The position numbers and the translations under genes were made by a program. Positions 13,002 through 56,650 of a DNA stretch of 64,000 nt are shown piece by piece; the stretch's first letter is position 1; every line of letters begins with the position of its first letter. Under the pieces are notes generated by a model that saw only the letters and a list, made by a program, of their open reading frames with translations, did no database searches and had not been told where the DNA came from. This DNA comes from Eledone cirrhosa (Eukaryota). The stretch lies in NCBI GenBank assembly GCA_964016885.1, contig OZ024747.1, positions 11,966,001 to 12,030,000 on the forward strand, read 5' to 3'.

Positions 13002-14410
13002 AGGGCAGTGGATTGGCAATAATCGGTAGAACATCGACCAAGATGCTTGGTGGCATAGTTACGGCCCTTTACTTTCTGAGTTCAAATCCTTCTGAACTTA
13101 GATTTGCCTTTCATCCTATTGGGGTCGATAAAGTACCAGTAATGCACTGGGGTCAATTTAATCGATTTTCCCCCTCCCCTTCTATTGTTGACGTTGTGCC
13201 ACAAATAAAAACAATTCGGGGTCGATAAAATAAAGTACCAGTAATGCACTGGGTAATTGCTGGCCTTGTGCCTAAAGTAGAAACAATTATTATAACTGTT
13301 ATTTATTTTGATGAGTTGACTTGTCAGGTGTAAGATCATTAGATATGTGAACCACATCTCTGTGTTCTGAGTTCAAATCCTGCCATGGTTCATTTTTTGC
13401 CTTTCATCCTTTCGGGGATCAACAAAGAAAGTACCAGCTCAGAGTTGGTGCAGCCCTTCTTCTCACTTTTCAGCTGTCACATCTTGGATGTTTCACTGGA
13501 TTAAAGGAGGCAGAGTTAAGAGGGTGTTTGTATCTGTCCATGACCCCTAAAACCCTGCGCAAAATCATGCTAGAAACTACCAAATCATCCTCGATTGTGA
13601 ATGATGGCTGTAATTTTTTAGTTTTCCTCATATTTAGTGATGAGGTGGAGAATTGTCAGAATCATTAGAACGTTGGATAAAGTGCTTTGCATTATTAGTT
13701 CTGACTCCCTGCTCTCTGAGTTCAAATTATGCTGAGGACAACTTTGCATTTCATCCATTGATGATAAAAGGTTGATAAAAAAAAAAGTACCAGTCTAGTA
13801 CTGGGGTCTATTCTTCCTCCCTATCTCTTTCTCACTTCCTTTCTCTCACTCCCTCTTTCCTTCTCTGGAAGAAATCTGCTGTATTCAGACCTGGAGAGGA
13901 TTGGGCTCTGCCAGCCTTTAAAATGCACTAGAAATGCCATATATCAATACAGCAACCCCATAACTCTCTCAGGAGTTACGGAACCATCCCAAACATGCAC
14001 AAGTGAACAACTTTGAATGATTAATGTTGTACCAGAATATAAACTCAGCTACATGTATTGAGTACTTTATGCCTCTCGGTTGTATACTCAATGATAGTTA
14101 TGTCTGAATAGTAAAATACGGGATGGTAACAACAACTAAAGTACCAGTAACGCACTGGGGTCGATTTAATCGACTTTCCCCAAAAAATTGTTAACCTTGT
14201 GCCTAAATCAGAAATCATCATTATTATTATCAGATCAATATATTGGCAAGTCCTTTGAACATTGGATAAATACCTAGCTCTTTATGTTCTGAGTTCAAAT
14301 CCTGTCGAGGTCATATTTATTTTTCATCTTTCTGGGGTCGATAAAAATAAAGTACCAGTAGAGCACGGGGTTGATATAATCGACTTTCTCTTTACTCTAA
14401 ATTGTTGTTC
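13002..14410 (+). mobile_element. Cluster of tRNA-derived SINE copies and fragments (about 13002-13290, 13365-13440, 13645-13810, 14140-14410)
   Basis: Repeated GAGTTCAAAT...TTTCATCC...GGGGTCGATAAA...AAGTACCAGT signatures. Confidence 0.85.
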
Positions 14411-14899
14411 TTGAATTATTACTGCAGTGTTCTTGGCCAAGTTAGATAACTCTGCTTGCTTCAGATTGTCTGTTACTACGTGGTTATCTTCTCATACTTT
14501 ACTGTCGAATTTAATTCATCGAAATCGCCATCAAAACACCAGGCGTCCTCGGATCCCGTTCTGTCGAGCACCTACATAAAATCGGAACGTCAACAGCCCG
14601 TCAGAGGAAGGAGTTCCATGCGACGGTGGTGGTAATAGTAGTAGTATTAGAAGTAGTGGTGGTGGTAGTAGTAAGTAGTGGTAAACAGTGCTGACAGTTT
14701 AATTTCCTCCAGACAAAATATACAGGTTTGATGATAGCGATTGGATAATGCAAGGGAGACAACTTAGGATCGACTGAAGGAAGACTGGTTATCTTAAAAT
14801 TGTGTGTGTGTGTAAAAGCACCGTCAGTAACGCAGGAGAATGGAAAATAACGAAATACTGGGGTTTTACTTGACATTTCCTTCGAGTCCTCTGGTGTTA

Positions 14900-15150
14900 T
14901 CGGTCCCTAAATTGAAGTCTTCGGAGAAGTAGCGGCTCTACCTGGAGTAACTCTTTGATCTCCGAGCTATGCACTCTATCGAGTAACATTGCTCCAAAGA
15001 TCCTTCGGGAGAACCCTCATTTCGACTGCTTGTATTCGATAATTACCCAAGATTCTTGACCATAAGTAAGGCTTGACGCGAACATGGATATGAAGATAGC
15101 GAGTTTGTTTTTTACACCGAGCTCCTTTCTTTTGATGACCGAATGCCGAA
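14900..15150 (-). mobile_element. RTE (Expander/Rex3-like) LINE remnant
   Basis: Minus-strand peptide KELGVKNKLAIFISMFASSLTYGQESWV..RIQAVEMRVL..LLDRVHSSEIKELLQVEPLLLR with frameshifts, typical of the RTE ORF C-terminal third. Confidence 0.75.
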
Positions 15151-16029
15151 GCTGCGCATTACTGTGTGTGTGTCATTTATTCTTTTAGTCATGAGACTGG
15201 GGCCATGCTGTCGCACCATCTTAACGCTGGTTTTATCGATCATAGCGACACTAGTACACATTGTGCAGGTGTGTTTGTGTGTATTTATCTCCTGTAACTT
15301 CCAATATCTTTTTGTGGAACCTCTAAGAACCAGTCCTGAAGATATAAGTACGGTGACGTGGAGGTTCGATATTACCGACTAAATCAAGACGGTGTCCCAG
15401 TATACCAGCTGTGTAATTACTGCAGTCAGTAAAAGAGAGTTGCTGAGTGTCAATAGCTGTCTCCCCTATAACATTCCTTCTCTCTGATGCCTATTGTTTC
15501 TTTACAATTTATCCACGGGACTCAGCCCATCACCCTTCCTTTCTTCAGTGGCCCAAGTGTCCGTCTTTCCCCCCCCCCCCCCATTTATGGCATTTACAGT
15601 CCTTTCCTCTATTTTCTCATACAACCAGATCTCCCCTTCTTTACCCCTTCCCCCCTTTTTTCTCATTATTTAATTTTGTTTTTATCTTTCTTTTTCACAT
15701 CTTTGTAATTATCAATGGTTTTTAAGACGACTTAATTTGAATAAAATTTCTATTTTCATCTTTAAAAAAGTAATTAAGATTTAGGGTTGGTAGCTCAAAC
15801 TCTACACACTTGGCTGATCCGAGAGATGCCAGGTTCGATTCATCACTGGTACCTCTGTCTACTTTTTTCCATCTCCAGAGGTACTTTACCTGAATTCCTT
15901 AACTATTATTTAGAGTGATCATGGAGTTCCACTGAAGCAGGTAGAGAAGCTAAAGTATCTCGGGACCGTGTTCGCGAGTGATGGAAGGCAGAAGGATGGG
16001 CATGTGGTTAGAATGTCTCAGGAAAGAAT

Positions 16030-16248
16030 CGCTGGACAGATTTTAGGGACAAAACGAACTGGCAGGAAACCCAGGGCGTACCCCGAGCCCGAGCAAGATG
16101 GTTGAATAACATCCATGAGCTTGGCTGGTCTCGCTTGGAGATCCAGGCGGATCATTTGGAGACAGTTGTTTCAGACAGGACCTGCTGGAAGGAGTTTTTG
16201 AGGACTCTGTCCCCCGCGACCTTCTCTGGAATAAGTGGGCCGAGAAGG
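16030..16248 (+). mobile_element. RTE (Expander/Rex3-like) 3' end
   Basis: Peptide TKRTGRKPR..PRARWLNNIHELGWSRLEIQADHLETVVSDRTCWKEFLRTLSPRP; homologous to 50675-50895 in the opposite orientation. Confidence 0.8.
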
Positions 16249-16971
16249 AGACTTTTATTCCAGTTCTTTCTTCGTTAGACCTCTCACATTTCAAACATAA
16301 TTATATATAATTTCTAAAACCTTTTATATATATATCCATTTCTCCAACTCTTTCATGTTTTGTAACAATCCTCTCCTCGCTTTATATTCCCTACACTTCT
16401 CTCCCTATTTATCATTTCTAACCCCCACTCCACTACATCCCTTCTTCTCATATCCTAGACATTTCTTTTTCTCTCCCTCTCTCTCTCTCTATCTCTCTCT
16501 CTCTCTCTCCCTCTCTTTATCTCTTTCTCTCCCTCTCTCTGTCTCTTTCTCTCTCTCTCTCTCTCTCTCTCTCTCTCTCTCTCTCTCTCTCCCTCTCTTT
16601 CTCTCTTTCTCTCTCTCTCTCCTCCCTATCTAATTTTCTCACTCTATCTAACTCATTTCCTCCTCAAATTCTCATATCTCTGTATCTTACTGTCTTCCAT
16701 ATTTTCCCTGCACCACCATCTACACTACCCCTACACCATCCACCCCACCACACCACCCACTACACCATCCACCCCCTATACCCCTCACCACACATTATAC
16801 CCTGCACCACCCTTATTAGTCTATCTATCTTTCACCCCCCTCATTACCGTATATACTCTTTCCTCCCCTCATTATTGTCTCTGTCTTTCTAGTTTCACCC
16901 CTCCTCCATCTCATTTCTTATTCCATCTGTCTATCCCCGTCATATTCTACATCTATACACACCCAGATCGA

Positions 16972-55309: not shown

Positions 55310-56055
55310 TGTGTGTCTATGTGCCTGTTAGTCTGTATATTATATAATGTGTCTATATGCTAGTGTCTCTGTGTGTGTGTGTGTGTGTGTGCCTGTTAGT
55401 CTGTATATTATATAATGTGTCTATATGCTAGTGTCTCTGTGTGTGTGTGTGTCTATGTGCCTGTTAGTCTGTATATTATATAATGTGTCTATATGCTAGT
55501 ATGTCTTTGTGTGTGTGTGTGCCTGTTAGTCTGTATATTATATAATGTGTCTATATGCTAGTATGTCTTTGTGTGTGTGTGTGCCTGTTAGTCTGTATAT
55601 TATATAATGTGTCTATGTGCTAGTATGTCTGTGTGTGTCTATGTGCCTGTTAGTCTGTATATTATATAATGTGTCTATGTGCTAGTATGTCTGTGTGTGT
55701 CTATGTGGCTGTTAGTCTGTATATTATATAATGTGTCTATGTGCTAGTATGTCTATGTGCGTGTGTCTATATGCCTGTTAGTCTAAGTCTGTGTGTGTCT
55801 ATATGCCTGTTAGTCTAAGCCTGTGTGTGTCTATATGCCTGTTAGTCTAAGTCTGTGTGTGTGTCTATATGCCTGTTAGTCTAAGTCTGTGTGTGTGTCT
55901 ATATGCATGTTAGTCTAAGCCTGTGTGTGTGTCTATATGCCTGTTAGTCTAAGCCTGTGTGTGTGTCTATATGCCTGTTAGTCTAAGTCTGTGTGTGTGT
56001 CTATATGCCTGTTAGTCTAAGCCTGTGTGTGTCTATATGCCTGTTAGTCTAAGTG
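55310..56055 (+). repeat. Two adjacent GCCTGTTAGTCT-containing minisatellites abutting exon 3
   Basis: GCCTGTTAGTCTGTATATTATATAATGTGTCTAT.. units, then GCCTGTTAGTCTAAG(T/C)C(TG)nTCTATAT units. Confidence 0.93.
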
Positions 56056-56075
56056 TAAATATTTGTCTATTTCAG

Positions 56076-56237
56076 AAAGAGACCAGCAGTTGCCCAACCT
56101 GTAAAAACAAAGTACCAGGTTATCTGACAAGGAAGAGTGACAAAGAAAACTCCACCTTCCTTGCACAGATCCGTAGTCTACAACAGAAGATCTCTGAACA
56201 GTACAAAACCATCAACGCTCTCAGACAAGCATGTTCG
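56076..56237 (+). CDS. JAKMIP: Probable JAKMIP-family coding exon 3 (54 codons, KETSSCPTCKNK...LAQIRSLQQKISEQYKTINALRQACS)
   Basis: TATTTCAG acceptor ending at 56075; TCG|GTAAGT donor at 56238. The 162 nt are open and phase 0/0, with heptad-like coiled-coil composition, forming a unique island between satellites. Confidence 0.8.
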
Positions 56238-56519
56238 GTAAGTACCAAACTATCAGGGTTGTTGCCTGTAATTCCTAATCTCTTAATGTTTTCTACCACA
56301 TAAAACCCCATTAGCTAAAGACTCGGTAATACTTTACATTAAAAATTAAAGTTTTCACTCTAACACTGCAAGGTATCACAATGGTTTGAGAGGTAAATGG
56401 CACCAAGTATGATTTAGTCTGTGAAGATCTTTACAAACTTTGCTAGCAGAGAAAACATTAAATGATGATGATCATCATCATTATCTCCCCCCCCCTCTCT
56501 CTCCATGTGGTTGATTGCT

Positions 56520-56650
56520 GAAAGAAGAAAGTACTCAATACCGAAGTTGAGTTTTAATCATTTATTAAAGCTAAATAGTGAGTCTTGTTGTTCAGGAGTT
56601 TCTAAACAGGCGAAACTCTAGAGTAACAGGACTCACTATTTAGCCTTTAT
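56520..56650 (-). mobile_element. Penelope-like palindromic mini-element, separate family
   Basis: Inverted arms AAAGCTAAATAGTGAGTCTTGTT..GAGTTTC / GAAACTCTAGAGTAACAGGACTCACTATTTAGCCTTT. GAAA-CTCTAGAG-TA is a hammerhead 3' half with a palindromic stem III. GTACTCAATAC at 56531-56541. Confidence 0.6.

Follow-up and report, generated by a model that had tools for sequence, protein, structure and literature searches.

A covarying bulged hairpin at the ends of Hydra-type Penelope-like retroelements in Eledone cirrhosa, a candidate signal for internal initiation of reverse transcription

Why should one short word recur exactly in small repeats that cannot otherwise be aligned? The question is raised by a 64,000-nucleotide stretch of the genome of Eledone cirrhosa (contig OZ024747.1, positions 11,966,001 to 12,030,000; hereafter the window, in whose coordinates positions are given), where the 11-mer GTATTGAGTAC occurs six times against an expectation of 0.15, a count reached in 0 of 100 shuffles. 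An earlier note on this DNA had described the word as a motif shared by unrelated families of mini-elements. All six matches lie at the coordinates and on the strands given there, as do the variants at 1520+, 1280- and 23301+, and comparison of the 40 bases downstream bears out its four sequence contexts: 20355, 22872 and 26130 form a single family (34-37 bases identical), and 23788, 56531 and 14055 have only 10-17 in common with that family or with one another. The word proves to be one strand of a bulged hairpin carried by Penelope-like retroelements (PLEs). Judging from its structure and position, we consider it probable that this hairpin serves as an RNA signal: the reverse transcriptase (RT) of the element would bind it and begin copying internally, a few bases to its 5' side.

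Across the genome (3.0 Gb searched) the exact 11-mer is found 94,661 times and a control, the reversed pattern, 1,015 times; with two mismatches the 11-mer is not enriched (24 found, 38.8 expected). The conserved unit exceeds the 11-mer, since it includes an upstream RCTC able to pair with GAGY, and the bipartite pattern ACTCTRC-N3-12-GYATTGAGT is counted 77,902 times against 14 in the control. In a stem-loop of the form RCTC-stem-loop-stem'-TT/TA/TC-GAGY-RC, the motif makes up the 3' strand. All families have RCTC a short way upstream, a variable inner stem, and a bulge of 1-2 nt on the 3' side.

The structure is supported by covariation across families with unalignable flanks. Sites were selected blind to pairing, by the fixed words RCTC...T[TAC]GAGYRC only and ignoring the inner stem, in a sample of 844 kb made up of the window and of 10-kb stretches, 18 of them neighbouring and 60 arbitrary; scans that require pairing served for discovery only. 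All three upper-stem positions were paired in 62 of the 75 sites, against 1/17 in reversed and 17/372 in shuffled DNA. When each of the 22 multi-copy clusters was reduced to one representative, 57 of 66 cells were paired (permutation mean 35.2; 0 of 10,000 permutations as high), and over all 55 clusters 122 of 165 (permutation mean 83.8). The multi-copy representatives hold 13 different fully paired triplet combinations, and their lowest upper-stem pair is A-T in 17, G-C in three and A-C in two. Over 19 hand-picked family representatives, conservation peaks at RCTC and TTGAGYRC and is elsewhere mostly close to background. No known RNA family was matched among the best 150 of 209 Rfam matches, all of them microsatellite-driven microRNA or small nucleolar RNA matches below the gathering threshold. 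Likenesses to splice sites, branch points and the rolling-circle nonanucleotide were also considered and were set aside once covariation emerged.

Five of the six exact matches lie in short elements (Table 1) composed of (TA)n, an inverted arm, a direct arm with a partial hammerhead ribozyme, a tail and again (TA)n. They are read as truncated fold-back ends, or pseudo-long terminal repeats (pLTRs), of Hydra-clade PLEs inserted in (TA)n, and longer copies lead to coding elements. The mini-copy at 20308..20498 matches the autonomous unit of family A (loci L069/L070), a tandem unit of 3,542 bp with an open reading frame (ORF) of 717-719 aa that bears YRDD and a C-terminal YIG motif. The family B ORF is 52% identical to it over 446 aa of the RT region and is linked to the family B mini-copies through a microsatellite-rich 3' untranslated region (UTR). 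The N-termini of families F and J resemble those of A and B. The Hydra clade has been described with RW[RK], DKT replacing DKG, a CxCx5C linker, and CxxC and CxH around the E and N of the endonuclease (PMC8557442). Here RWR and DKT occur in A, B and F, and in J across frameshifts; the cysteine motifs are CNCPDRSIC (linker), CNLC (CxxC) and CKH (CxH) in family A, and CNCLNKEAC, CDLC and CMH, respectively, in family B. Pfam gave no RT match, and GIY-YIG only at E 0.096 in family B; the assignment of A and B as single ORFs with RT and GIY-YIG domains rests on the reading of these motifs. Insertion in (TA)n and tandem plus inverted pLTRs with a one-sided tail were also found. By these features A, B, F and J are Hydra-type PLEs, new members of a known clade; in four junction copies of family C no linked ORF was found. 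"Unrelated" holds for the flanks, which cannot be aligned, but not for the elements, as every family with a traced ORF belongs to this group.

Compared with the Hydra clade of C-terminal-endonuclease PLEs (Craig et al. 2021, PMC8557442), our elements share the same RW[RK], DKT, CxCx5C, CxxC and C-terminal CxH, the pLTR hammerhead, (TA)n targets, tandem units, the inverted 5' arm and the one-sided tail, the last two of which are already familiar from PLEs (PMC8557442). The tails are longer, ~70-80 nt here against 30-40 in that description, and the family A unit measures 3.5 kb where the clade was given as under 3 kb. Non-LTR retrozymes (PMC7229834; bioRxiv 10.64898/2026.07.22.740005) are likewise short, hammerhead-bearing, PLE-related repeats, but they are described as tandem units with complete ribozymes and lack a coding partner in cis, whereas the copies here are scattered, truncated pieces from the ends of coding elements and mostly keep half a ribozyme, and the tandem form is the coding unit; this identity was rejected.

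The position of the hairpin relative to the ends of insertions is the second line of evidence. In family A, junction copies contain another hairpin of this class, which follows the first by ~78 nt and lies immediately beyond the end of the mini-copies; such a second hairpin, ~80 nt further on, is found in junction copies of four families (A, C, F and J). The ends of insertions gather at two sites, which mostly lie 3-8 nt 5' of a hairpin. Where an end is followed by microsatellite, it falls at site 1 in 27 cases, at site 2 in 43 and elsewhere in four for family A (n=74), and in 18, 40 and one, respectively, for family B (n=59). Ends and (TA)n share a TA overlap at the junction, and to this the range of 3-8 nt at both family A sites is due. 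The stretch between the two sites corresponds to the known PLE tail, so that each insertion holds the motif once.

Public sequencing contig sets agree with this map. Family A loose ends joined to TA lie mainly at L070 7325 and 7245; among the rows listed, set X1 has 352 and 82 records at the two end sites and set X4 smaller TA-like ends at 7258 and 7339. Read depth, which is not copy number, drops more than 100-fold over hairpin 2 of family A, past site 2. For family J the positions were predicted beforehand: TA-joined ends, expected at 1612-1620, were found at L194 1616 in 4/4 runs, and the depth step, expected at 1524-1530, lay at ~1528. In family F a second hairpin just past the mini-copy end was found in 316 places against 0 in the control (98 of the 100 listed). 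A generic twin-hairpin pattern, from which family A was excluded by design, gave matches that were mostly noise (135 against 54 in the control), and it led to family J and to locus L196. No junction copy was present among 15 matches of family I. A survey of fold-back structures that was blind to pairing returned 41 cases, of which 20 are families A, B and C with hairpin 1, one ends at family A site 2, and the remainder are unrelated or noise. The earlier proposal of a cis-element common to unalignable families in Penelope-type pLTRs, a candidate for recognition by the RT, is supported. In L070:7200-7340 (-) the predicted minimum free energy (MFE) fold links the two hairpins of family A by 9 bp between the 5' strand of the first and the 3' strand of the second; a conformational switch is possible.

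According to the same note, the motif shares the strand of the ribozyme and lies some tens of nucleotides 3' of the cleavage site. Where a ribozyme is present this is correct: the distance from the predicted cut to the start of hairpin 1 is 25 nt in family A, 25-29 nt in B and 48 nt in I. The link is not a general one, however, because in the sampled DNA the hairpin accompanies only three of 20 hammerhead clusters and four of 40 hammerhead matches; several hammerhead families of the genome lack the motif, and the tie is to the Hydra-type group. Many of the hammerhead matches are inverted arms that stop short of the hairpin. The pLTR hammerheads are of type I; our descriptor finds them in A, B and I and misses C, F and J, those of F and J being recognised by eye, and they are absent from the best 150 Rfam matches. 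The family A hammerhead (L070 ~7345-7435, -) has a long insert in stem II and a U3-A8 variant core, such as that described in PMC4209133, and most family A mini-copies retain only its 3' half. Abundant hammerhead families without the hairpin are represented at L095:1748, L067:3312 and L082:8260, and in the window copies of the family I and family F hammerheads (6100-6200 and 29200-29295, respectively) break off ahead of the hairpin, in agreement with site 1.

Six published Hydra consensi (File S7 of PMC8557442) were inspected by eye. Hydra-2_Amil and Hydra-2_Ajap have one hairpin each near the 3' end, Hydra-1_Ajap has two at its 5' start, and in these three elements the lowest pair is G-C; Hydra-1_Crog has two imperfect hairpins, one of them 6 nt past the unit boundary. 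The hairpin is visible in coral and sea-cucumber consensi. Among 19 word matches in the supplement of PMC8557442, 16 are in Naiad or Chlamys files. One match, in the 3' UTR of Naiad_Mmer (File S5), forms such a hairpin, with an upper stem of 6 bp; it comes after a stretch resembling a selenocysteine insertion sequence (SECIS), far from the element end, and may be a coincidence.

These observations can be joined in a model that extends the two internal starts described for Poseidon_Ac, a PLE of another clade, in which they bound the tail (Frangieh et al. 2024, PMC11167929). A read-through tandem transcript would carry both hairpins; the RT-endonuclease would nick (TA)n on both strands, bind each hairpin and prime from nicked (TA)n a few nucleotides 5' of it, once per hairpin. 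The two cDNAs would become the long arm and the inverted arm, and the one-sided tail would be the segment between the two starts and would hold hairpin 1. Hairpin 2 would guide copying without being copied itself.

Several results weigh against this reading. Many of the loci used for mapping ends were chosen by motif or ORF, and the covariation permutation ignores the shared descent of families. The bias of G.U over A.C is weak at the family level (8 vs 3), predicted folds are weak (-4 to -8 kcal/mol) with z below -2 in only two of 10 single-hairpin windows (-2.44 in family E), and the bulged hairpin is often not the MFE structure, longer contexts favouring other folds. Family B has a sharp site 2 and no canonical second hairpin, the only candidate, 6-8 nt downstream, being GCAC-TCTCT-GTGC. 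Family C has its site 1 ~13-17 nt away from hairpin 1, shows a second hairpin in four of 51 matches (junction copies) and has no overall enrichment of its pattern (51 against 42 in the control); the L196 copy ends ~58 nt beyond its second hairpin. Hairpin 2 of F and J has only 1-2 upper-stem pairs, the second site of J is seen by depth, with no loose end among the rows listed, and its four runs represent two samples, three coming from one of them. Of the published consensi, Hydra-1_Amil has a partial hairpin only and in Hydra-1_Obim none was found by eye (PMC8557442).

Other explanations account for part of the data. The hairpin might mark RNA cleavage or 3'-end formation, in which case a cut immediately to its 5' side would leave the transcript 3' ends at which the RT starts. 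This would produce the same two clusters of ends and require no contact between RT and hairpin, but the PLE tested in vitro starts internally regardless of the RNA 3' end (PMC11167929) and the TA overlap at the end sites fits priming on (TA)n; we regard it as unlikely, though the strongest of the alternatives. Ranked after it, and also unlikely, is an action as DNA: within cDNA or single-stranded intermediates the hairpin would signal endonuclease recognition or resolution and so create the tail. The tail has indeed been ascribed to endonuclease resolution (PMC8557442) and is needed for recognition by the D. virilis endonuclease, as cited in PMC11167929, and covariation does not tell RNA from single-stranded DNA; against it stand two fixed sense-strand features, a G.U pair in family B and a UUCG loop in family C, and hairpin 2, which lies outside the inserted DNA and so could act on the template only.

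A role in expression, as a promoter element or as an aid to the translation or stability of the uncapped RNA left by hammerhead cleavage, would suit a hairpin located in the 5' leader, shortly after the predicted cut in three families and ~20-150 nt before the ATG. We think it improbable, because it leaves the fixed distance to the insertion ends unexplained and because covariation is not expected of a promoter word. Very improbable, finally, is that the functional unit is the linear 11-mer itself, the mini-hairpin GTAT-TGA-GTAC that the earlier note had drawn, or the peptide VLST, read in the frame of the ORF in families A and B. The first three bases of the motif vary with their upstream partner. 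The mini-hairpin has 0 kcal/mol alone and is fully paired in only 5/19 family representatives, although in one 46-nt family A window it forms, helped by flanking bases, as the MFE structure; for the peptide, family F has stops between the hairpins and the ATG. Mini-hairpin and peptide were rejected, and covariation largely refutes all these readings.

Priming guided by a bulged hairpin, which we continue to favour, is related to what was seen in Poseidon_Ac: in each case two internal starts, observed there and proposed here, are located 3' of the hammerhead and bound the tail. In Poseidon_Ac the starts are in an AC-rich stem-loop, whereas here a defined, covarying and duplicated hairpin lies 3' of each proposed start; a protein-binding element within the first 172 nt of the ORF was hypothesised there and not identified (PMC11167929). 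The clade, the tail, the inverted arms and the internal starts are known, and the paired bulged hairpin as a cis-element is apparently undescribed. The word "hairpin" occurs 0 times in the main text and supplement of PMC8557442, and "stem-loop" 0 times in the main text. In agreement with the earlier note, which had not recognised the motif, no description came from a search of full-text literature, a scope that excludes subscription journals, Repbase/Dfam notes and figure images; the exact 11-mer is present in 4 papers, and the 3 listed concern, by their titles, unrelated topics.

For the RTs of LINEs (long interspersed nuclear elements; L1/Alu and the R2 3' UTR), a short RNA stem-loop near the priming site has been proposed to recruit the enzyme. 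Those stem-loops lie 5' of the start and are copied, whereas the hairpin here would lie on the 3' side of its start and be left out of the copy begun there.

The features of the window are collected in Table 1. The site at 14055 is the weakest of the six, with a partial stem and only one further genomic match, and the family I hairpin escapes the 11-mer search. The stretch 14115-14180 is a remnant with many genomic matches that resembles short interspersed nuclear elements (SINEs) of the cephalopod CORE type. Long minisatellite arrays occupy 26968-28927 (period 48), 8244-9785 (33), 46015-46862 (30) and 34118-35135 (61).

Table 1. Carriers of the motif and their hairpins in the window
Feature	Position	Strand	Remarks
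Family D fold-back mini-copy	1379..1573	+	hairpin ~1503-1530, GCAT/ATGC upper stem
Family E relative	1280..1290	-	hairpin 3' strand only
Degenerate hairpin, old rare element	14043..14065	+	no hammerhead seen
Family A fold-back pLTR mini-copy	20308..20498	-	inverted arm, hammerhead 3' half, tail, in (TA)n
Hairpin 1, family A	20355..20380	-	ACTC TACT loop AGTA TT GAGT AC; motif is 3' strand
Family A short mini-copy	22830..22928	+	
Hairpin 1, family A	22857..22882	+	
Family E mini-copy	23251..23349	+	hairpin 23290-23311, GTCC/GGAC stem, 1-nt bulge
Family I fold-back mini-copy	23382..23591	+	hairpin 23532-23554, GCTC/GAGC, TA bulge
Family B fold-back mini-copy	23650..23840	+	hammerhead CTGATGA...GAAA on both arms
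Hairpin 1, family B	23781..23798	+	upper stem 3 nt shorter than family majority
Family A fold-back mini-copy	25992..26187	+	
Hairpin 1, family A	26115..26140	+	bulged hairpin contained in MFE
Family C fold-back mini-copy	56505..56647	-	
Hairpin 1, family C	56531..56552	-	TTCG loop; one upper-stem mismatch in this copy

Related repeats occur elsewhere. Loci L189-L192 (G000:C1:14244317-14267035), which were left out of the cluster covariation counts and counted separately, are a satellite of ~58-bp units derived from hairpin 1 and the tail of family A; the stem is broken in nearly all of the 160 units (one is fully paired), a loss that may stem from a single mutation. The 3' UTR of family B (L141, L154, L116) contains ~2.4 kb of mixed TA/TG microsatellite, so that the element spreads microsatellite and its own type of target. 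Near-identical family B copies with shared flanks (L110, L111, L112, L124-L130) are close to the ends of several contigs, which suggests a subtelomeric duplicated block.

The RTs of PLEs are the closest relatives of telomerase, and how they choose template and start site is an open question; the sole in vitro study of a PLE did not identify the binding element, and an explanation of how the tail and the inverted ends arise is lacking. A covarying hairpin of 20-30 nt with a fixed relation to both insertion ends can be tested by a few point and compensatory mutants, and it offers an annotation marker for ~100,000 short repeats in this genome. More tentatively, as a possibility rather than an expectation, paired bulged RNA hairpins conserved from coral to echinoderm to mollusc may position the template for a telomerase-related RT, with a hairpin for each start, perhaps also for each subunit of a dimer, and with both (TA)n strands primed simultaneously. 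If this is true, the PLE tail and the inverted pLTR would be explained by one mechanism, and a minimal portable signal for target-primed insertion would be defined.

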